In this document: positions 1-35,003 of the stretch, one piece after another | Numbering within the stretch: the stretch's first letter is position 1 | How the letters are laid out: each line of letters starts with the position of its first letter | DNA from: Escherichia coli | GTDB taxonomy: Bacteria > Pseudomonadota > Gammaproteobacteria > Enterobacterales > Enterobacteriaceae | Length of the DNA: 64,000 nucleotides | Strand: one strand, 5' to 3' | Assembly (NCBI RefSeq): GCF_045037415.1 | Contig: NZ_CP173438.1 | The notes under the pieces: model-generated | What the model saw: the letters and a program-made list of their open reading frames with translations, nothing else | Database searches by the model: none | Told to the model about the DNA's origin: nothing | Made by a program: the position numbers and the translations under genes

Positions 1-72
1 GAAGGCAAAGCGCGGTTAACGACTGACCCCGTCAGCGGGCGGCGTGCGCGGTGTTCCGGTTTGACTCCGTGA
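1..72 (+). CDS. 3' fragment of an upstream phage gene (by position possibly terminase small subunit gpM)
   Basis: Open frame from window edge to TGA at 70-72, immediately upstream of gpL; too short to identify. Confidence 0.25.
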   Translation, partial: EGKARLTTDPVSGRRARCSGLTP

Positions 73-111
73 CCGTTTACACCGCGCACCCACCGCCCGA
101 TTTTTTCAGGA

Positions 112-615
112 GTGAACCCCATGAGTATGGTTGCCAGAACTAACCCCGGCCCCGCAGAGGACGACATCACCGACACCGATGATGGCGATACCCGTATTTC
201 AGCGGGTGCATTCTGGCCGGATATTGTGCTGCGCGAGCTGCGTCTGGCGGTACGACTGCCGGGCCGCGTGACCACCTCCCGCCTGCTGCATACCGCCACC
301 GGGGCCATAGCACACGTTACCCGCGAGCTGGAAGCATGGCAGCAGGAACAACAGGCGGCTGGCTATCAGACGCTGGCCGATGTTCCGGCCCCTGTAATTA
401 ACGGAGAAAGCGTCAATCTCTGGCACTGGCGCAATGCTGTTTATACCGCCACACGCGCCCTGATTCTGGAGCGTTACCGCGATGCGGACACAACGGACAA
501 GGGCGACCGCCGGGCGGACGCACTGGATATACAGACATCGGATTTGTGGCGCGATGTGAGCTGGGCCATCTCTGACATTCTGGGACGACCGCGAATGTTT
601 GCGGAGCTGTGCTGA
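112..615 (+). CDS. phage capsid completion / head stabilisation protein (P2 gpL-like)
   Basis: 167 aa ORF; size and position immediately before gpX and lysis genes match P2 L; sequence resembles gpL family from memory. Confidence 0.7.
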   Translation: MNPMSMVARTNPGPAEDDITDTDDGDTRISAGAFWPDIVLRELRLAVRLPGRVTTSRLLHTATGAIAHVTRELEAWQQEQQAAGYQTLADVPAPVINGESVNLWHWRNAVYTATRALILERYRDADTTDKGDRRADALDIQTSDLWRDVSWAISDILGRPRMFAELC

Positions 616-815
616 TGAAAGTGAAGGCACTGGAAGGCGACACCGTGGATTCGCTCTGTTTCCGGTACTACGGCACGACACAGGGCGTCACCGAAAAGGT
701 GCTGGATGCCAACCCCGGACTCTGTCAGCAGGTATTTCTGGACGCCGGGCAGGAAGTGGAGATGCCGGAGCCGGAGAAGAAGAAACGAGAAATGATTCAG
801 TTGTGGGGGGAGTAG
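609..815 (+). CDS. phage tail protein X (P2 gpX-like, LysM-like)
   Basis: 68 aa ORF overlapping end of L; conserved position and size of P2 X. Confidence 0.65.
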   Translation: MLMKVKALEGDTVDSLCFRYYGTTQGVTEKVLDANPGLCQQVFLDAGQEVEMPEPEKKKREMIQLWGE

Positions 816-817
816 CA

Positions 818-1141
818 GTGAGCACCATTCAAACAGGGATCACAGAGCAGGTTATTGCGTGGCTCTTTGACCACCTGCCAACGGTGTATGCAGTAGGCGC
901 GGCGGTCAGCATTTCCGCGCTGATGAGTCTTTATGACGGACGAACACTGGTTCAGACCGTAACGGGATCGCTGGCGTGCGGCGTTCTTGCCATGGCCGTG
1001 GCCGGGTCGCTGCGCTTCTTCGGGATCCCTGAGGATGCAGTGACGTTTTTTGGTGCCTCAATCGGTTTTATGGGCGCAGAGAAAGCACGCGACAAGGTTA
1101 TTGCAATATTTGATCGCAGGGTGAAGGAGAGGAACGAATGA
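818..1141 (+). CDS. putative holin
   Basis: GTG start right after X stop; ~107 aa with 2-3 hydrophobic segments (VYAVGAAVSISALMSLY, LACGVLAMAVAGSL, FFGASIGFM) and charged C-terminus; precedes endolysin. Confidence 0.5.
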   Translation: MSTIQTGITEQVIAWLFDHLPTVYAVGAAVSISALMSLYDGRTLVQTVTGSLACGVLAMAVAGSLRFFGIPEDAVTFFGASIGFMGAEKARDKVIAIFDRRVKERNE

Positions 1142-1530
1142 GCAACACATTTAAATTCAGCAGCCGGAGCGAAAAGAATTTGCAGGGTGTAAATCCTGAT
1201 CTGGTGAAAGTGACCCGACGGGCGCTGGAAATCTCGGAAGTGGATTTTGGTATCACCGAAGGATTGCGCAGTCGTTATCGTCAGAAGCAGCTCGTGACCA
1301 CAGGCAAGAGCCAGACCATGAACAGTCGCCATCTCACAGGGCATGCCGTGGATGTTGTGGCTTATGTCGGCAACCAGGTGTCATGGGAATGGCCGCTGTA
1401 CGAAAAAATCGCAGCAGCATTCAGACAGGCCAGCCAGGAACTGAATATTCCGGTGGAATGGGGCGGCGACTGGAAGACCCTGAAAGACGGACCGCATTTT
1501 CAGTTACCACACGGAGCCTATCCGGCATGA
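1138..1530 (+). CDS. endolysin, peptidase M15-type (L-alanyl-D-glutamate endopeptidase-like)
   Basis: 130 aa; N-terminal pattern (..VNPDLVKVTRRALEIS..DFGITEGLRS..) and H..D..H spacing typical of small phage M15 endolysins; ATGA overlap with holin and Rz. Confidence 0.7.
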   Translation: MSNTFKFSSRSEKNLQGVNPDLVKVTRRALEISEVDFGITEGLRSRYRQKQLVTTGKSQTMNSRHLTGHAVDVVAYVGNQVSWEWPLYEKIAAAFRQASQELNIPVEWGGDWKTLKDGPHFQLPHGAYPA

Positions 1531-1922
1531 AGCTCTGGCCCACGCTTGGCGTCGCTTTCCTTCTGATTACATCCATGCGTCTGTCGTGGTCGCTGGGCCG
1601 GGAGAACGCCAGAAACGAAGCGCAGGCCAGCACCCTGAAAAGTACCGTCGACACACTGAATATCATCAGCGCCGGGGTACAGGATATGCAGCAGGTGCTG
1701 GCTCAGCTCCGCGCGGAAAATCAGCAACGCAATCAGGACGGAGAGGTAAGACGTGAACAGCTACGCAACGATATTGCAAAAGATGAATGCGCCCACGCTT
1801 TGCCTGACGCTCGTTTTACTGACAGGTTGCGCAGGCACGCAGAACGCGCCAGGGCCAGCGCCGTCAGTCCGGCTTATACCGCAGACGCTGACCATGCCGG
1901 TAACGCCTCCCCCCTTCCCTGA
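1527..1922 (+). CDS. i-spanin (Rz / P2 LysB-like)
   Basis: 131 aa, N-terminal TM (LWPTLGVAFLLITSM) followed by coiled-coil-like charged region; overlaps endolysin stop. Confidence 0.6.
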   Translation: MKLWPTLGVAFLLITSMRLSWSLGRENARNEAQASTLKSTVDTLNIISAGVQDMQQVLAQLRAENQQRNQDGEVRREQLRNDIAKDECAHALPDARFTDRLRRHAERARASAVSPAYTADADHAGNASPLP

Positions 1923-2064
1923 CCCACCCACATGGGGAAACCTCGGAATATGGGGCGACCGCCTTCTGGATGCACTGGAAACCTGTAACGCGGATAAACG
2001 GGCCATTGCTGAACTGGATAAGAGAATAGCCGAACTGACACACCAGACGGGAGTAACACAATGA
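1753..2064 (+). CDS. o-spanin lipoprotein (Rz1 / P2 LysC-like), overlapping Rz in another frame
   Basis: Lipobox LLTGC after signal-like segment, proline-rich stretch (PVTPPPFPDPP); start may be ATG 1753 or 1783. Confidence 0.55.
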   Translation: MNSYATILQKMNAPTLCLTLVLLTGCAGTQNAPGPAPSVRLIPQTLTMPVTPPPFPDPPTWGNLGIWGDRLLDALETCNADKRAIAELDKRIAELTHQTGVTQ

Positions 2065-3938
2065 CCAGTAAGAACTTTGCACTGATTACAGCCATGACAC
2101 AGGCTGAACTGACTCAAAAGGTGAATGAACATCTTGCGAAAGGGTGGCATCTTCAGGGGGAGACGCGGGTTGCCTACGAACCCGGCACCCCGTGGTATCT
2201 AATGCAGGCAATGGTGGCCGATGGCACTACAGACATCTCACCTGATTCCCCCCAGCACGGCAGCGTGCCGGAGTGGTATTACGTGGTGGTACTTGCTGGT
2301 CAATCCAATGCCATGTCATATGGTGAGGGAATGCCGCTGCCGGATTCTTACGATGCGCCCCACCCACGCATTAAGCAACTGGCCCGTCGCAACACAGTGA
2401 CTCCCGGTGGTAAAGCATGCGCATTTAACGACATCATTCCGGCAGACCACTGCCTGCATGATGTTCAGGATATGAGCGCACTGAATCACCCGAATGCAGA
2501 CCTGAGCAAAGGGCAGTATGGCTGTGTCGGACAGGGCTTGCATATTGCCAAACGCCTGTTGCCTTACATTCCACAGAATGCCGGGATTTTACTGGTTCCA
2601 TGCTGTCGTGGTGGTTCGGCATTCACCCAGGGCGCGGAGGGGACATTCAGCGAGTCCACAGGAGCCAGTCAGGATTCGGCTCGCTGGGGTGTGGGTAAAC
2701 CTTTATATCAGGACCTGATTTTGCGCACGAAGGCCGCATTGCAGAAAAACCCAAAAAACATGCTGCTGGCCGTATGCTGGATGCAGGGCGAATTTGACAT
2801 GAGCGCCGCTACGTACTCACAGCAACCTCCGCTGTTTACGGCCATGCTGAAACAGTTTCGTGCGGACATTACCGAGTTTAACACGCAGTGTCATGGAGGC
2901 AGAGCGGCAAGTGTGCCATGGATTTGTGGTGACACGACGTATTACTGGAAAAACACCTACGGCACGCAGTACGACACCATTTACGGGGCGTACAAAAACA
3001 GGGAGAGCGACAACGTTTTCTTTGTGCCGTTCCTGACCGATGGTAGTGGCAACAATACCTCCACCAACGCACCAACGGAAGATCCGGATGCTGCAAGTGA
3101 GGGATATTACGGTTCGGCATCCCGAACGAACAAAAACTGGGTATCATCAAATCGCCAGACGCATTTCAGCTCATGGGCGCGTCGTGGCATTATTCCCGAT
3201 CGTATGGCAACCGCTATTCTGAACGTAGCCGGTCGCACCTTAGCCTTCATCAGTGGTAAGGCACCGGAAATCAAACCCTCGCCCGGCGGCGACACGCCAT
3301 CGGGGCCGTCTGAAGATGCATCCGTACGCACAATCTCCCTGTTGCCGACAGCCGGAGATGCTGCTGCGCAGGGCTGGAGCATTAAGAATGGCGGAATTCA
3401 GTTGTCAGAGGGTGTATTTAAGATCACCAAGCAGAGCAATAAAGCCTGGTCCCTGACGCGCCCGGTGGATGACGCAGTCTCCCTGCTGACACGGGGTGGC
3501 AGACTGAGCTGTAAGTTTCGACTGTCAGGCGCACTGACCAACAATCAGTTCGGTCTGGGAATTTATCTGTATACCGATGTAGCGTTACCTGACGTCGTGG
3601 CGATGACCGGGACTGGTAACCCGTTCCTGATGTCGTTCTTCACCCAGACCACAGACGGCAAACTGAATCTGATGCATCACAAGAAAGCAGGAAACACAAA
3701 GTTGGGCGAGTTCGGGAATTACAGTAACGACTGGCAGACGCTGGAGCTGGTGTTCACCGCCGGCAGTGCCACGGTTACTCCGAAACTGAATGGAGTGGCT
3801 GGCCCGGCATTCCAGGTCATAAAAGACAGTCTGACACTGGGGCTGAATGCGCTGACGTTAACTGATATCACTAAAAATGCCGCGTACGGCGTCGATATCG
3901 GCAGCCTGGTGCTGGAAATCAATAATCCCGCAGCATAA
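2061..3938 (+). CDS. prophage cargo protein: DUF1737-like N-terminal domain + SGNH/DUF303-type esterase (NanS-p-like putative sialate O-acetylesterase) + C-terminal beta-rich domain
   Basis: 625 aa; N-terminus ...ITAMTQAELTQKVNEHLAKGWHLQGE... resembles DUF1737; motif VVLAGQSNAMSYGEG resembles the GQSN block of SGNH/DUF303 esterases; located between lysis cassette and tail gene R, where P2 has no gene. Confidence 0.55.
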   Translation: MTSKNFALITAMTQAELTQKVNEHLAKGWHLQGETRVAYEPGTPWYLMQAMVADGTTDISPDSPQHGSVPEWYYVVVLAGQSNAMSYGEGMPLPDSYDAPHPRIKQLARRNTVTPGGKACAFNDIIPADHCLHDVQDMSALNHPNADLSKGQYGCVGQGLHIAKRLLPYIPQNAGILLVPCCRGGSAFTQGAEGTFSESTGASQDSARWGVGKPLYQDLILRTKAALQKNPKNMLLAVCWMQGEFDMSAATYSQQPPLFTAMLKQFRADITEFNTQCHGGRAASVPWICGDTTYYWKNTYGTQYDTIYGAYKNRESDNVFFVPFLTDGSGNNTSTNAPTEDPDAASEGYYGSASRTNKNWVSSNRQTHFSSWARRGIIPDRMATAILNVAGRTLAFISGKAPEIKPSPGGDTPSGPSEDASVRTISLLPTAGDAAAQGWSIKNGGIQLSEGVFKITKQSNKAWSLTRPVDDAVSLLTRGGRLSCKFRLSGALTNNQFGLGIYLYTDVALPDVVAMTGTGNPFLMSFFTQTTDGKLNLMHHKKAGNTKLGEFGNYSNDWQTLELVFTAGSATVTPKLNGVAGPAFQVIKDSLTLGLNALTLTDITKNAAYGVDIGSLVLEINNPAA

Positions 3939-3961
3939 GGAAGAGCAGGAGAGCAAAACAG

Positions 3962-4429
3962 ATGCTTAAGACAAACAGTCTGCGAGAGTCCATGCTTCAT
4001 GGGTGTCGGTGGTGCCAGGCTAATCCCGAGAAATTCACCATTTTCGTGGAGAGCGGCAACATTGAAACGACCGGAGAAGCGCCCTCGTTTGTTTACCGCT
4101 ATCAGATGGTGATGTTTGTCATGGATTACGCCGGAGAGCTGGACGACCTCACGCTGCCGCTGCTGGCGTGGTTATCCGAAAATCAGCCACAGTTGTTGCT
4201 CAATCCGGAGCGTAATCAGGACATCAAATTTTCTGCCGTTATCAATGACGATGACAGCGCCGATCTCCTGTTTACGCTCCCCCTGCGGGAACGCGTTCGC
4301 ATCACGCGCAACAGTCAGGGCACACCGCAGGCAGAACACCTGCCGGAGCCAAAACCCCGTCTGCCTTCTTCCGAAGGCGACTGGTCGCATGTATTCCAGG
4401 ATGTGACGTGGGGTGAAAGCGATGGATAA
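3962..4429 (+). CDS. phage tail completion protein (P2 gpR-like)
   Basis: 155 aa, position and size match P2 R. Confidence 0.7.
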   Translation: MLKTNSLRESMLHGCRWCQANPEKFTIFVESGNIETTGEAPSFVYRYQMVMFVMDYAGELDDLTLPLLAWLSENQPQLLLNPERNQDIKFSAVINDDDSADLLFTLPLRERVRITRNSQGTPQAEHLPEPKPRLPSSEGDWSHVFQDVTWGESDG

Positions 4430-5057
4430 GGCATTCACCCGCGTGGATGAAACCTTTGAGGCTATCCGCGACAGCCTGAATCAGCAGGCCATCAATAACA
4501 TCGCCAGAAAGCTGGCACAGGATTTACGTCGCGCCCAGCAGGCACGTATCCGGTCACAAAAAGCGCCGGACGGGACCGAATGGACACCACGCAGACGCCG
4601 CGTAACCCGGATACAGGAGCGCATTCGCTTTATCTGGAATAACGAAGCACGCACGCTGAAAAACTGGCATCACGACACAGGGAAATACGGGCGAACCATT
4701 ACCGGGTGGGATGAGGATAAAAACAATATCCGCACGTTTTACCGGGATGACATCGACCGTTTTCTGGAAATACGCACCCGGCGCATCAACCAGGACAGCA
4801 CAAAGCGCGTCCCCATGTTCGTAAAACTGCGCACCGCCCGCTACCTGAAAGCCCGTGCAGATGCCTCCGGTGTGACGGTGGGTTACAGCGGCGTGGCCGC
4901 ACGTATTGCACGCGTTCATCAGTTCGGTGAGCGCGATCAGGTTGCGCCGGGCATTTTCACCGATTACCCGGTACGTGAGCTGTTGGGTATCAGCCAGGCA
5001 GATGAGCGCCTGATTTATAACACGGTGCTGGGCCGGATTGCGGAGGCTGTACGGTGA
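4413..5057 (+). CDS. phage tail completion / virion morphogenesis protein (P2 gpS-like)
   Basis: 214 aa, overlaps R end, precedes V. Confidence 0.7.
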   Translation: MKAMDKAFTRVDETFEAIRDSLNQQAINNIARKLAQDLRRAQQARIRSQKAPDGTEWTPRRRRVTRIQERIRFIWNNEARTLKNWHHDTGKYGRTITGWDEDKNNIRTFYRDDIDRFLEIRTRRINQDSTKRVPMFVKLRTARYLKARADASGVTVGYSGVAARIARVHQFGERDQVAPGIFTDYPVRELLGISQADERLIYNTVLGRIAEAVR

Positions 5058-5635
5058 GCGCAGAACTCATGCGACTGCTGAGCAACATCATCCGCACCGG
5101 GATCATCTCTGAAGTTGATGAGAAGTCCTGGCGCGTGCGCGTTCGCAGCGGCGAACTGGAAACAGGCTGGTTGCGCTGGAACACCACGCGCGCGGGAGCC
5201 TTCAATGTGTGGCTGCCGCCATCACCAGGCGAACAGGTGGTAATTGCCTGCATTGGCGGCAACCCGGAAACCGCCATGATAATTGGCAGCCTGTGGAGTG
5301 ATGCCAGTCCGGCCCCCGGCAAAAGCCTGAAAGAAATCGTGGTCAGCGCGCCGGATGGCGCGGTGTTCCGCTACGACGCAGACGCTGGCGCACTGAGCGC
5401 CAGCGGCATGAAAACAGCCACCCTGCAGGCATCCGTCAGCGTGACACTGGATACGCCCGTCGTGGAATGCACAAACCTTCTGAGAACGGCGACGCTTGAC
5501 GTCACAAAAGAGGGAAAGATGAGCGGCAATATCACGCACAGCGGCGGCAATTTCACCTCAAACGGCATTACCGTGCATACGCATAAGCACGGTGGCGTTA
5601 AAGGTGGCAGCGATTCGACAGGAGGCCCGCAGTGA
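5054..5635 (+). CDS. baseplate assembly protein V (spike; P2 gpV-like)
   Basis: 193 aa, GTG start; gpV-like N-terminal OB region. Confidence 0.8.
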   Translation: MSAELMRLLSNIIRTGIISEVDEKSWRVRVRSGELETGWLRWNTTRAGAFNVWLPPSPGEQVVIACIGGNPETAMIIGSLWSDASPAPGKSLKEIVVSAPDGAVFRYDADAGALSASGMKTATLQASVSVTLDTPVVECTNLLRTATLDVTKEGKMSGNITHSGGNFTSNGITVHTHKHGGVKGGSDSTGGPQ

Positions 5636-5982
5636 CAACCCGCTACACAGGAATGAACCCGGACGGGACGGGAAACCTGAACGATATGGAGCACCTGAAA
5701 CAGTCAGTCAGGGACATCCTGATCACCCCGCTGGCAAGCCGGGTTATGCGACGGGAATATGGCAGCCTTGTGCCTGATTTGATTGACGAACCCATGAATA
5801 ACACCACGCGTCTGCAATGCATGAGTGCTGCCGTGATTGCGCTGACACGATGGGAACCCCGCATTGCCCTGGACGCCATCGACGTTGTCTGGAAGGCAGG
5901 AGGCCGCGCCGGGGTGACGCTGTCGGGCACTGTCATGCAGACCATGCAGAATGTTGAATTAACCATCACGCTGAGAGAGTAA
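5632..5982 (+). CDS. baseplate protein W (gp25-like; P2 gpW)
   Basis: 116 aa, GTG start overlapping V stop; matches gpW/GPW_gp25 family features. Confidence 0.8.
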   Translation: MTTRYTGMNPDGTGNLNDMEHLKQSVRDILITPLASRVMRREYGSLVPDLIDEPMNNTTRLQCMSAAVIALTRWEPRIALDAIDVVWKAGGRAGVTLSGTVMQTMQNVELTITLRE

Positions 5983-5985
5983 ATC

Positions 5986-6882
5986 ATGCCTGCTGTTGAT
6001 CTTTCCCAGTTACCGGAACCCGCCATCATCGCGGAGCCTGATTTTGAGGCAATTCTGGCTGACACAAAGGCCATGATGATTGCGTCCTATCCTGCCGAAC
6101 AGCGTGAAGCCGTCTCCGCCGCGCTGGAGCTGGAATCAGAACCCCTGAACGTTATCGCTCAAACCATGTCGTTTCGTGAAATGCTGTTACGCCAGCGGGT
6201 TAACGAGGGCGCACGCGCCTGCATGTTAAGCCACGGTTCAGGGACAAACCTGGACAACCTCGCGGGCAATATGAACACAAAGCGCCTGGTTATCACTCCG
6301 GCAACGGATACCACCGACGCGGTGATGGAGAGCGACACCTCGCTGAGACTGCGGGCGCAGCGGGCGTATGACGGCCTGAGTGTTGCTGGCCCGTCAGGTG
6401 CATACGAGTATTTTGCACGCAGCGCCAGCGGTCTGGTGCGTGATGCGCGGGCCATCAGCCCGTCTCCGGCCTGTGTGACGGTTTCCATTCTGTCCACTGA
6501 AGGCGACGGCACAGCAACGGAGGCGTTGCTTAATACCGTTCGCGCCGTTCTGAATGCAGAGGATACCCGCCCGGTGGCCGACCGACTGACCGTACAGAGC
6601 GCCAGCATCGTGACATGGCGGCTGAATGCAAAACTGTACTTTTACCCCGGCCCGGAATCCGAACCTATTCTGGCTGCGGCTGAATCGTCGTTCAGGAAGT
6701 GGCTGGCTGAGCAGGGGCTTATTGGTCAGGACGTGGCGTTGTCAGCCATTGCTGCCGCACTTCATGTGCACGGCGTGCAACGCGTGGAGATAATCGAACC
6801 CACACAGAATATGGCCATCAGCGACATACAGGCGGCGCGCTGTGAGTCATTCACCATCAGCGAAGGTGGGCGTAATGAGTAA
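5986..6882 (+). CDS. baseplate protein J (P2 gpJ-like)
   Basis: 298 aa, conserved baseplate J position and size. Confidence 0.85.
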   Translation: MPAVDLSQLPEPAIIAEPDFEAILADTKAMMIASYPAEQREAVSAALELESEPLNVIAQTMSFREMLLRQRVNEGARACMLSHGSGTNLDNLAGNMNTKRLVITPATDTTDAVMESDTSLRLRAQRAYDGLSVAGPSGAYEYFARSASGLVRDARAISPSPACVTVSILSTEGDGTATEALLNTVRAVLNAEDTRPVADRLTVQSASIVTWRLNAKLYFYPGPESEPILAAAESSFRKWLAEQGLIGQDVALSAIAAALHVHGVQRVEIIEPTQNMAISDIQAARCESFTISEGGRNE

Positions 6883-17870: not shown

Positions 17871-18980
17871 ATGACCGACACCACCATGCAATTGCTCAGT
17901 CAGGGCACAGACCCCGTGAAAATGCCGGATTTTGATATTCTCGCGGAGGGTAAAACGCTGTCAGGCGTGGCAGAGCGCCTGATGAGCCTGTCACTGACCG
18001 ACAACCGGGGATTTGAGGCGGACCAGCTCACCATCACGCTGGATGATGCGGATGGTCAGTTGCAGCTACCGCCACGGGGCGCGCGCCTGACGGTTCTCAT
18101 TGGCTGGAAAGGAGAACCGCTGACAGAAAAAGGCACTTACATTGTTGATGAAATCGCTCACGAAGGACCGCCGGACAGGCTGACTGTTTCAGCCAGAAGC
18201 GCAGATTTTCGGGATGAATTTAACGTTAAACGTGAGGTGTCCTGGCATGATGTGACCGTTGAGCGTGTGGTATCCGCCATCGCTCATCGGTATGGTCTGA
18301 AACCGCAAATCAGCGAAATGCTGATGGATATCGAAATCGACCACGCCGACCAGACCGAAGAAAGCGACATGTCCTTCCTTACGCGCATGGCGGAAATGCT
18401 GGGCGCAATCACCACGGTAAAAAGCGGTAATCTGTTATTCATCATGCCCGGCGGTGGCGTGAACGCACAGGGCCAGCCGTTGCCATCGTTTGCCATCACA
18501 CGCAGCAGCGGCGATCGCCATCAGTTCCGCATTGCTGACCGCGAAGCGTATACGGGGGTACGCGCTTACTGGCTTGATCTTAATTACGGGAAAAAGAAAA
18601 AAGTCAGCGTGAAACGCCGTAAACCGCCAAAACCCAAAAAGGAGAAAAGCAGCAGCCGCGAAGGTGATTATATGGAAGGCGCGGAAGGCAATGTGTTTGT
18701 GTTACGCAAGACTTATCAGAACGAGCAGGCAGCAAGACGCGCAGCGGCGGCAAAGTGGCAGCAACTACAACGCGGAGCCGCATCATTCTCCATCACGCTG
18801 GCGCGTGGACGTGCAGAACTCTACCCCGAAATGCATGGCACGGTAACAGGATTTAAAAGCGAGATTGATAATCAGGACTGGATCATTGCAAAAGCCGAGC
18901 ACACCATTGATAACAGCGGTTTTACCACGCAGCTTGAGCTTGAGGCAAAAATCCCGGAATGGATAGCGGAAACAGAGTGA
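17871..18980 (+). CDS. tail protein D (P2 gpD-like late control D family)
   Basis: 369 aa from ATG 17871 with RBS GGGAGGGA; gpD-like sequence; ORF-track start 17739 is probably an upstream extension. Confidence 0.85.
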   Translation: MTDTTMQLLSQGTDPVKMPDFDILAEGKTLSGVAERLMSLSLTDNRGFEADQLTITLDDADGQLQLPPRGARLTVLIGWKGEPLTEKGTYIVDEIAHEGPPDRLTVSARSADFRDEFNVKREVSWHDVTVERVVSAIAHRYGLKPQISEMLMDIEIDHADQTEESDMSFLTRMAEMLGAITTVKSGNLLFIMPGGGVNAQGQPLPSFAITRSSGDRHQFRIADREAYTGVRAYWLDLNYGKKKKVSVKRRKPPKPKKEKSSSREGDYMEGAEGNVFVLRKTYQNEQAARRAAAAKWQQLQRGAASFSITLARGRAELYPEMHGTVTGFKSEIDNQDWIIAKAEHTIDNSGFTTQLELEAKIPEWIAETE

Positions 18981-19020: not shown

Positions 19021-19281
19021 ATGTTCCGTTGTCCGCTTTGTGGCGCATCTGCCCGTATCCGCACCAGTCGTCCGGAAAATGATTCAAACACCGTGCGGCA
19101 AAAGTATTACCAGTGTAACAATCTGGAATGCGGCGTATGCTTCTCAACACTGGAAGCTTTCCATAAATTCACATCAAAACACGCCTCCGGCGTTCACTCT
19201 TCAGAAGGTATCCCGTGGCATGATCTGCCAGCTTCACACAGGGGAAACAATCAGATGAGTTTGCCTTTATCTCAGAATTAA
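19021..19281 (+). CDS. late-gene transcriptional activator, Ogr/Delta zinc-finger family
   Basis: 86 aa; MFRCPLCGASARIRTSR...YYQCNNLECGVCFSTLEAF with the Cys-x2-Cys...Cys-x4-Cys pattern of P2 Ogr. Confidence 0.85.
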   Translation: MFRCPLCGASARIRTSRPENDSNTVRQKYYQCNNLECGVCFSTLEAFHKFTSKHASGVHSSEGIPWHDLPASHRGNNQMSLPLSQN

Positions 19282-19369: not shown

Positions 19370-19555
19370 ATGTGGAAAGGCCCCGAGTCAACTTTAACGT
19401 TAACCCGAGGCCCTAACCATCTACCCTCAGCAAGTGATAGGTTAGCGCCTCCCCGAAAAAGGAGCAAGCGCTATGTCGCAAAAATCGCTTACGGCCATCA
19501 CATTCTGCGTGACGGCAATCCTCATCATCTGGATGCTGCACGGTTCGCTGTGTGA
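19370..19555 (+). CDS. mok-like overlapping reading frame of hok locus (translational coupling frame)
   Basis: 61-codon frame starting ~100 nt upstream of and overlapping the hok-like ORF in a different frame, as in hok/mok/sok loci. Confidence 0.4.
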   Translation: MWKGPESTLTLTRGPNHLPSASDRLAPPRKRSKRYVAKIAYGHHILRDGNPHHLDAARFAV

Positions 19556-19613
19556 AATACGGATGAGTTTCTGGGGAGCGGAGTTTGCGGCGTTCTTACA
19601 GTGTAAGCAGTAA
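19473..19613 (+). CDS. Hok/Gef-family type I toxin (46 aa)
   Basis: MSQKSLTAITFCVTAILIIWMLHGSLCEIRMSFWGAEFAAFLQCKQ: single TM then conserved SLCEIR and E.AAF motifs of Hok/Gef; below the 60-aa ORF-track cutoff, found by reading the DNA. Confidence 0.7.
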   Translation: MSQKSLTAITFCVTAILIIWMLHGSLCEIRMSFWGAEFAAFLQCKQ

Positions 19614-19918: not shown

Positions 19919-21232
<1,314 letters not shown>

Positions 21233-34783: not shown

Positions 34784-34871
34784 GGTGAGGTGTCCGAGTG
34801 GCTGAAGGAGCACGCCTGGAAAGTGTGTATACGGCAACGTATCGGGGGTTCGAATCCCCCCCTCACCGCCA
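34784..34871 (+). tRNA. serW: tRNA-Ser (anticodon GGA)
   Basis: GGTGAGGTGTCCGAGTGGCTGAAGGAGCACGCCTGGAAAGTGTG...GGTTCGAATCCCCCCCTCACCGCCA: acceptor stem pairing, long variable arm, T-loop GGTTCGAATCC, 3' CCA. Confidence 0.93.
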
Positions 34872-34922
34872 TATTTAAAGAAGAGCTCGTACGAAAGTAC
34901 GGGCTTTTTTTTCGCATTTTAT

Positions 34923-35003
34923 CTGCCTGTACGGCAGTGAACTTGTCATTATTGGCAGACAGGATCCGCGGCAATTTCTAAGCTGCCTGTACGGCAGTGA
35001 ACT
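34923..35003 (+). repeat. two copies of a 21-bp direct repeat (CTGCCTGTACGGCAGTGAACT) spaced 60 bp apart downstream of serW
   Basis: Exact copies at 34923-34943 and 34983-35003; each contains short dyad CTGCC..GGCAG. Confidence 0.8.

Follow-up and report, generated by a model that had tools for sequence, protein, structure and literature searches.

A stretch of 64,000 nucleotides (nt) from Escherichia coli (contig NZ_CP173438.1 of assembly GCF_045037415.1, hereafter the window) carries, in the late half of a P2-like prophage, a gene for a protein of 625 amino acids (aa) that is quite likely a late-expressed, lysis-released sialate O-acetylesterase of the NanS-p type, equipped with a lectin-like module. 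The gene lies between the spanin gene lysC and the tail gene R, and its sequence context marks it as an embedded member of the late operon. NanS-p is a well-known family and this gene had previously been flagged as NanS-like; what is newly seen is modest but concrete, namely a slot that appears conserved among P2-like phages, a DUF1737 subfamily that appears specific to them, and apparently clear exchange of the enzymatic payload with lambdoid prophages.

The reading frame starts with ATG on the plus strand, and both peptides quoted from it in an earlier note on this DNA (ITAMTQAELTQKVNEHLAKGWHLQGE and VVLAGQSNAMSYGEG) were found in its product, which has the length claimed there. The window is 99.98–100% identical to the E. 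coli O25b:H4 sequence type 131 (ST131) strain EC958, where the gene bears the RefSeq identifiers EC958_RS04675 and WP_000202148.1 and is named only 'DUF6645 domain-containing protein'. PHROGs files the family (PHROG_143) as 'unknown function', and an NCBIfam search with the 625-aa protein returned no meaningful match. Pfam resolves three domains, DUF1737 (PF08410; aa 4–53, 2.3e-6), SASA (PF03629; aa 75–271, 9.8e-11) and DUF6645 (aa 476–586, 4.5e-19). Solved structures agree with this partition: aa 69–388 match E. coli NanS/YjhS (3pt5; E=1.7e-125) and aa 430–622 match the crystallised C-terminal domain of NanS-p (6yp6; E=1.7e-29), a Pro/Ser-rich linker (aa 391–429) preceding the latter. The DUF1737-like N-terminus, the SGNH/DUF303 esterase and the beta-rich C-terminal domain, all of which had been proposed from the letters of the DNA, are therefore each borne out, and the sequence, profile and solved-structure matches all agree on the resemblance to NanS-p, here carried by a P2-like myovirus.

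In E. coli NanS, an enzyme of SGNH type II, Ser19 and His301 are catalytic, Gln18 and a Gly form the oxyanion hole, and a catalytic Asp is lacking (PMC9063846). Ser82, His368 and Gln81 of the window protein align with NanS Ser19, His301 and Gln18, and the GQSN motif, the QGE block and His368 are invariant in 12 of the 12 aligned homologs. The catalytic Ser-His-Asp that the earlier note expected on alignment stands in its Ser and its His, with the Gln conserved as well, but the C-terminal His/Asp dyad misdescribes the family, since NanS works without a catalytic Asp.

The closest known systems are the NanS-p proteins of lambdoid phages (933W L0105/z1466/933Wp42, phi24B vb_24B_21/gp84, phage 434 CPT_434_71 and EC958_1546), which have the same DUF1737-SASA-DUF6645 architecture and identical active-site residues, with catalytic domains 67–85% and C-terminal domains 36–87% identical to those of the window protein. 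Over its whole length the window protein is 80% identical to the 'SASA family carbohydrate esterase' of phage 434 and 82.4% identical (515/625) to NanS-p of the lambdoid prophage Phi4 (EC958_1546). Both kinds of gene are prophage-borne members of a late transcription unit beside lysis genes; the window gene differs in residing in a P2-like myovirus, after the spanins and before R, with a start codon that overlaps lysC. In lambdoid and Shiga toxin (Stx) phages, by contrast, nanS-p sits between Q/stx and holin S, upstream of the holin, endolysin and spanin genes (phage 434, 933W, phi24B and EC958 Phi4), and the location just downstream of the lysis genes that had been ascribed to it for Stx phages is mistaken. 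The window DUF1737 also constitutes a separate subfamily, 20–31% identical to its lambdoid counterparts and with a longer invariant hairpin, EPGxPWY. Chromosomal NanS (YjhS; nanCMS operon; 3pt5) shares a 58% identical SGNH type II domain with the same Ser/His/Gln active site; it is, however, a single domain of ~326 aa encoded in a sialic-acid catabolism operon with nanC and nanM, whereas the window protein has three domains and belongs to a phage late operon.

The prophage in question is P88-like and belongs to Xuanwuvirus (Peduoviridae). It is integrated between serS and dmsA; its late half occupies positions 1 to ~19,700 of the window, and the remainder of the window is chromosome from serS to potH. 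The genes run in the order head completion, X, holin, M15 endolysin, LysB/LysC, esterase, R, S, V, W, J, I and H, which places the esterase gene, by its position in the sequence, in the late region between lysC and R. Coupling to its neighbours is tight on both sides: the esterase start codon overlaps the lysC stop codon in the ATGA at 2061–2064, a GGGAG Shine-Dalgarno sequence precedes the ATG, and only 23 nt separate the esterase stop from the R ATG (3962), with the R ribosome-binding site inside them. Consensus scans of positions 1–6000, which are crude, gave two promoter-like and six terminator-like matches, not more than expected from shuffled sequence, and hence no promoter or terminator of the gene's own; they found no plus-strand terminator after the esterase gene and none between it and R. 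The P2 Ogr-type late-promoter motif, TGT-N12-ACA, was likewise absent from 1–6000, but it is missing even upstream of gene O, a place that must have a late promoter, and this test is therefore uninformative for Xuanwuvirus. From the lysC overlap, the 23-nt gap and the lack of any promoter or terminator excess, the gene reads as an embedded late-operon gene and not as an autonomous moron. Morons and other lysogenic-conversion cargo offer a partial likeness, being likewise accessory, missing from close relatives such as P88 and of plausible benefit to the host; the classic moron nevertheless has its own promoter and terminator and is expressed in the lysogen, while the window gene showed neither in the scans and overlaps lysC.

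Comparison with P88, the nearest phage, delimits the insertion. In P88, LysB/LysC are followed directly by R, and in P88 and its closest relatives both flanks of the esterase gene match at ~96% while the gene itself is missing. A segment at 2009–4003 stands in place of 93 bp of P88, with one breakpoint in the 3' end of lysC and the other in the 5' end of R, and the claim that this reading frame interrupts the canonical P2 order is accordingly upheld. The G+C content of the gene (52–56%) is near the flank values, and composition thus gives no sign of foreign origin.

The lysC-esterase-R arrangement is widespread. The lysC junction with this N-terminal variant (window 1990–2290) was detected in 375 of 5,426 complete E. 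coli genomes (~7%), lysC nearly always being annotated next to it; carriers belong to many different serotypes and include ST131, O26:H11 and O104:H4, and the reading frame is intact in hundreds of genomes. Deposited phages give a much thinner picture: among 50,697 records the N-terminal variant occurs in only three, all of them ST131-derived and P88-like, and the other DUF1737-esterases there are all lambdoid, with an identity of at most 36% in the N-terminal region. In IMG/VR the N-domain picked up 33 loci, all of which are P2-like and have the order LysB/LysC, esterase, R. Seven of these (L033–L039) have a distant P2-like backbone, with capsid protein 62%, R ~57% and LysC ~44% identical, and an esterase 50–53% identical overall; megablast of one of them (L036) against the deposited phages found no match, and 14 E. 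coli genomes contain one of these distant types as well. The lysC-esterase-R order recurs on two short metagenomic contigs, there preceded by an endolysin of the lysozyme type. A word-indexed protein search with the N-domain gave only near-identical fragments, one of which, 95% identical, is labelled Enterobacter hormaechei; an exhaustive phmmer search gave 10 matches only; and the N-domain alignment drew no match from the GTDB species-representative genomes.

The recurrence of one slot and of a P2-specific N-domain in all 33 IMG/VR loci, including a lineage with just 62% capsid protein identity, points to long residence of the esterase in P2-like phages. Its presence between lysC and R is thus best read as old and recurrent within this group and not as a single recent capture, and the earlier suggestion of an independent acquisition by a P2-like phage is not borne out by these data. 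In the distant lineage (L036 at 9969–10372 of the IMG/VR locus; E. coli matches H154–H163) a DUF1378-family gene and a hypothetical gene stand between the esterase gene and R. Elsewhere DUF1378 accompanies the lysis genes of lambdoid phages, and its place beside the esterase gene hints that a larger lambdoid block may once have been transferred.

The three domains of the protein differ in their patterns of identity. Within the N-domain (aa 1–56), P2-like copies are 55–100% identical to each other and lambdoid copies 61–100%, but between the two groups identity drops to 20–40%. The catalytic domain (aa 69–390) of the window protein, on the other hand, is 66–70% identical to the distant P2-like copies and 85% identical to phage 434, and the C-terminal domain (aa 430–625) is 31–37% identical to the former and 87% to the latter; in L036 the C-terminal domain is 55% identical to that of 933W. 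The nucleotide sequence repeats the pattern at finer scale. Compared with the Phi4 nanS-p gene of the same ST131 genome, the window gene is unalignable before 2261, 61–90% identical over 2261–3160, 98–100% identical over 3161–3860 and again unalignable after ~3860; from the P2-like allele of O104:H4 it differs only in the middle, where identity is 71–91%, the two ends being 100% identical. The stretch 3161–3860 has the appearance of a recent gene-conversion tract. Taken together, such incongruent per-domain and nucleotide identities are the signature of a catalytic and lectin payload that would have been repeatedly gene-converted between paralogs of unrelated prophages, the N-domain and the last ~80 bp staying fixed in the P2 backbone. 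The three deposited P88-like records (ON470599, ON470623 and PV468777) end inside the esterase gene, at positions corresponding to 3311, 3311 and 3524, all within the tract nearly identical to the Phi4 paralog; this paralogous repeat probably breaks short-read assemblies, which would leave the P2-like context under-reported. Ratios of nonsynonymous to synonymous substitution (dN/dS) were ~0.08–0.10 for the N-domain (within the P2-like clade), 0.09–0.16 for the catalytic and 0.18–0.62 for the C-terminal domain, synonymous sites being saturated in the deeper comparisons, and these values indicate purifying selection on all three domains.

Table 1 Features of the esterase gene and its surroundings in the window
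Feature	Position	Strand	Basis
NanS-p-type sialate O-acetylesterase gene (probable function)	2061..3938	+	Open reading frame; 100% match to EC958 annotation; PHROG_143 over full length
N-terminal DUF1737 domain, P2-type subfamily, aa 1–56	2061..2228	+	Pfam; AlphaFold2 model; identities; dN/dS
Disordered Ser/Pro/Thr linker, aa 57–68	2229–2264	+	
SGNH type II / SASA catalytic esterase domain, aa 69–390	2265..3230	+	3pt5; Pfam SASA
Gln81-Ser82 codons	2301–2306		
His368 codon	3162–3164		
C-terminal lectin-like jelly-roll domain, aa 430–625, DUF6645	3348..3935	+	6yp6; Pfam DUF6645
Tract 98–100% identical to Phi4 nanS-p of the same ST131 genome	3161..3860	+	Identity per 100-nt block; protein alignment
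Segment substituting for 93 bp of P88 (3' end of lysC, esterase gene, first ~14 codons of R)	2009..4003	+	blastn against P88
lysC (Rz1-like o-spanin), inside lysB (1527–1922)	1804..2064	+	EC958 annotation mapped; PHROG spanin matches
Holin (818–1141) and M15 endolysin (1138–1530), P2-type lysis cassette, upstream in the same operon	818..1530	+	
Tail completion genes R (3962–4429) and S (4422–5057), directly downstream of the esterase gene	3962..5057	+	

Published work on this gene and its relatives gives the enzyme a functional frame. The Phi4 paralog EC958_1546 was studied by Kakkanat et al. 2017 (PMC5425062), who gave its identity to EC958_1029 as 82.7%. By its position relative to lrp (EC958_1001), and with our own 82.4% beside the published figure, the window gene is almost certainly EC958_1029, which was noted as NanS-like in that study. 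In enterohaemorrhagic E. coli (EHEC), the NanS-p enzymes of EDL933 and of O104:H4 strain C227-11 are active and support growth on 5-N-acetyl-9-O-acetylneuraminic acid (Neu5,9Ac2), all five of those in C227-11 being prophage-encoded and active; z1466 is induced together with the late genes, and lambdoid nanS-p lies in the late transcript and is induced with stx (PMC8065619). C227-11 has a P2-like ortholog (NZ_CP011331.1, 1681594–1683474) 91% identical to the window protein, as measured on the identical allele of 2009EL-2050, and this ortholog is probably one of the five alleles assayed. No paper linking NanS-p to P2-like phages was found in the literature; a 2026 survey of P2-like viruses mentions neither an esterase nor SASA nor DUF1737, and a paper on the ST131 'tailocin' does not discuss the esterase gene.

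The mechanism that we favour would run as follows. Ser82 would serve as nucleophile and His368 as base, with Gln81 and a Gly forming the oxyanion hole of the central SGNH type II domain, and the enzyme would take 9(7,8)-O-acetyl groups off the sialic acids of mucin glycans, Neu5,9Ac2 among them, with the jelly-roll domain at the C-terminus acting as a lectin-like carbohydrate-binding module. Translation of the esterase would be coupled to that of lysC inside the P2-type late operon. No signal peptide, hydrophobic leader or membrane segment was seen in the 625-aa protein; with the coupling to lysC and the lack of a promoter or terminator of its own, this suggests that the esterase would be made only when the prophage goes lytic and would leave the cell at phage lysis. 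Outside the cell, de-O-acetylation would render host sialoglycans usable by sialidases and by sibling lysogens, as in EHEC NanS-p. This benefit is what we infer, like the substrate, the timing and the release by lysis; the homology, domain architecture, active-site conservation, embedding in the operon, distribution, mosaicism and purifying selection are what the sequences show. Several P2-like lineages would long have carried the gene in their lysC-R slot; gene conversion with lambdoid nanS-p paralogs would repeatedly have swapped the catalytic and lectin parts, while DUF1737 would have stayed P2-specific.

Three points weigh against this account. P2-like prophages are generally poorly inducible, so that a public good released by lysis would be quantitatively small. 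ST131 also has chromosomal NanS-like genes, which would make the function redundant. Over-expression of EC958_1029 left motility unchanged, unlike that of EC958_1546 (PMC5425062), which implies that the paralogs are not fully equivalent.

Among the alternatives, one that is compatible with this account concerns the site of action, and with it the chief beneficiary. In phi24B, cryo-electron microscopy and proteomics identified gp84, a NanS-p, as a capsid decoration protein whose DUF1737 forms a hexamer at the capsid hexon centres, with Tyr42 of a loop as anchor, and whose enzyme part is cleaved off later (bioRxiv 10.64898/2026.04.10.717836). The window protein resembles gp84 in its homologous DUF1737 fold, made of a helix and beta-strands, and in the flexible Ser/Pro linker and enzyme cassette that come after it, though the N-domain is only 20% identical to that of gp84; a P2-specific virion anchor is plausible by this analogy: the P2-type DUF1737 would fasten the esterase-lectin cassette to the P2-type capsid, and the phage more than the lysogen would gain, through adherence to or penetration of mucus or through later release of the enzyme by linker cleavage. 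Several findings lean this way. The N-domain sorts strictly with phage type, while the other two domains move between types; it has diverged about as far as the P2 backbone (55–66%, against 62% for the capsid protein) and shows strong purifying selection; the anchor loop of phi24B aligns with EPGxPWYLMQAM, the stretch that is best conserved in the N-domain; the gene sits among the virion-assembly genes of the late operon; and the AlphaFold2 model of aa 1–68 is a confident small fold (strand-helix-strand-strand-strand; predicted local distance difference test score 81) that becomes disordered after about residue 56. Other points stand against it. The gp84 of the T=9 phi24B podovirus shell binds only the flat hexons at face centres, which have no equivalent in the T=7 capsid of P2; and no decoration protein is known for the P2 capsid, which is built of gpN. 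The lambdoid-type N-domain accompanies quite different capsid genes, namely those of phage 434, 933W and EC958 Phi4, the last having a major capsid protein of 645 aa, and its sequence therefore need not be tuned to the capsid; the partition by phage type could equally follow from a 5' end that is tied to flanking P2 DNA during gene conversion. The N-domain model has no structural neighbour in the PDB (Foldseek gave nothing better than E=0.1, the weak dodecin-like and NikR-like matches not being meaningful), and single-domain relatives of the N-domain (P0016–P0018) are found on short contigs or amid what look like early genes, a setting that is silent on a structural role and, at most, speaks slightly against such a role being universal. 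The linkers, finally, hold ISPDSP and KPSPGG..PSGPS but no exact SSP, the self-processing motif that has itself only been proposed (bioRxiv 10.64898/2026.04.10.717836). On balance we regard display on the virion as tentative and rather unlikely, though compatible with the favoured enzyme identity, from which it differs only in where the enzyme acts; its fuller form, in which DUF1737 would be an exchangeable, capsid-lineage-specific anchor by which P2-type heads display a mucin-directed esterase-lectin cassette traded with lambdoid phages at the domain boundary, is somewhat less likely again.

Two further explanations change the substrate or remove the function altogether. Receptor-modifying esterases occur in many phages, and the target might be a bacterial glycan, O-acetyl groups being taken off O-antigen or off an O-acetylated polysialic acid capsule so as to aid adsorption or to alter the surfaces of lysing or neighbouring cells; this possibility was raised for NanS-p in a review (PMC8065619), and O-acetylation occurs on sialic-acid capsules in some E. 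coli (PMC8319020 Table 1). We consider it improbable, given that the catalytic domain shares 58% identity with chromosomal NanS, an enzyme acting on Neu5,9Ac2, free or bound to mucin, that the NanS-p enzymes assayed act on mucin sialic acids (PMC8065619), that the gene is neither fused nor adjacent to the tail-fibre genes at 7408–11449, and that the carrier hosts are of so many serotypes. Least probable, in our judgement, is a non-functional passenger, a hitch-hiking remnant without any role in the P2-like phage that functional lambdoid copies alone would maintain through gene conversion. The recent conversion tract from the Phi4 copy, the lack of a phenotype of over-expressed EC958_1029 in the motility assay (PMC5425062) and the fact that P88 and its relatives thrive without the gene would all suit a passenger; but the reading frame is intact in hundreds of genomes, the active-site residues are invariant, dN/dS stays far under 1 (0.08–0.2) for the N-terminal and the catalytic domain, of which the former cannot be repaired by lambdoid copies, and the slot is conserved across P2-like lineages as distant as those with 62% capsid identity.

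Elsewhere in the prophage, two suspected anomalies were dropped. An inversion of the FI-U tail block was discarded, as P88 has the same arrangement, and a truncated gpD was discarded, as the gene at 17871–18977 is intact in the window and gives an unbroken 366-aa match, 99% identical to P88 gpD. RefSeq presents tail gene D of EC958 (950787–951587) as a shortened 801-bp coding sequence plus a partial pseudogene, and the discrepancy reflects either a strain difference or an error of the EC958 assembly at that point. Tail fibre gene H (7408–9393) contains internal direct repeats of ~130 nt, 86% identical, at 7932–8276, which encode 'LSSATNS.SETQAATPKAVKAAYDLAN.KYTAQDA' units of the tail-fibre shaft. 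An invertible tail-fibre segment spans 8668–12099: between inverted repeats at 8668–9174 and 10943–11449 lie, in opposite orientations, alternative genes for the tail-fibre C-terminus and for its assembly, adjoined by a Cin/Gin-type recombinase gene (11500–12099), a layout identical to that of P88. The prophage ends with a gene for an ogr/Delta-like zinc-finger late activator (19021–19281) and one for a Hok/Gef-family toxin (19473–19613), which adjoin serS (19919–21211, minus strand). Its early region, outside the window (EC958 976721–979462; L044 7722–10463), carries ParM-type plasmid segregation and partition genes, together with DUF4760 and hypothetical cargo genes, between the portal gene and replication gene A. 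In the chromosomal part, a type I-F CRISPR remnant of two repeats and one 32-nt spacer (34915–35002) sits between clpA and tRNA-Ser (34784–34868)/infA; Rfam CRISPR-DR4 matches 34975–35002 on the minus strand, the second, slightly degenerate repeat lies at ~34915–34942, and no cas genes occur near it. We take this position to be the usual CRISPR3/4 locus of E. coli.

Overall, discussion of NanS-p has so far hardly gone beyond its role as an accessory of lambdoid phages, Stx phages included, in EHEC. Of the complete E. coli genomes, ~7% carry the same enzyme as an apparently stable part of P2-like prophages, among them those of the pandemic extraintestinal pathogenic E. coli (ExPEC) clone ST131, O26:H11 and the O104:H4 outbreak strain. 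The labels under which RefSeq and PHROGs list it hide a NanS-p-type enzyme, and the mucin-sialic-acid esterases of E. coli other than Stx-producing strains are consequently undercounted. Unrelated prophages share up to ~700 bp of near-identical DNA, on which recombination can act and which seemingly breaks short-read assemblies. The N-domain's strict adherence to phage type, moreover, yields a cheap and testable prediction for the proposed role of DUF1737 as a capsid anchor; were that role true, the window protein would be the first decoration protein in Peduoviridae, and the phi24B result would widen into a modular scheme of 'anchor + payload' shared by unrelated phage families within a pandemic ExPEC clone.

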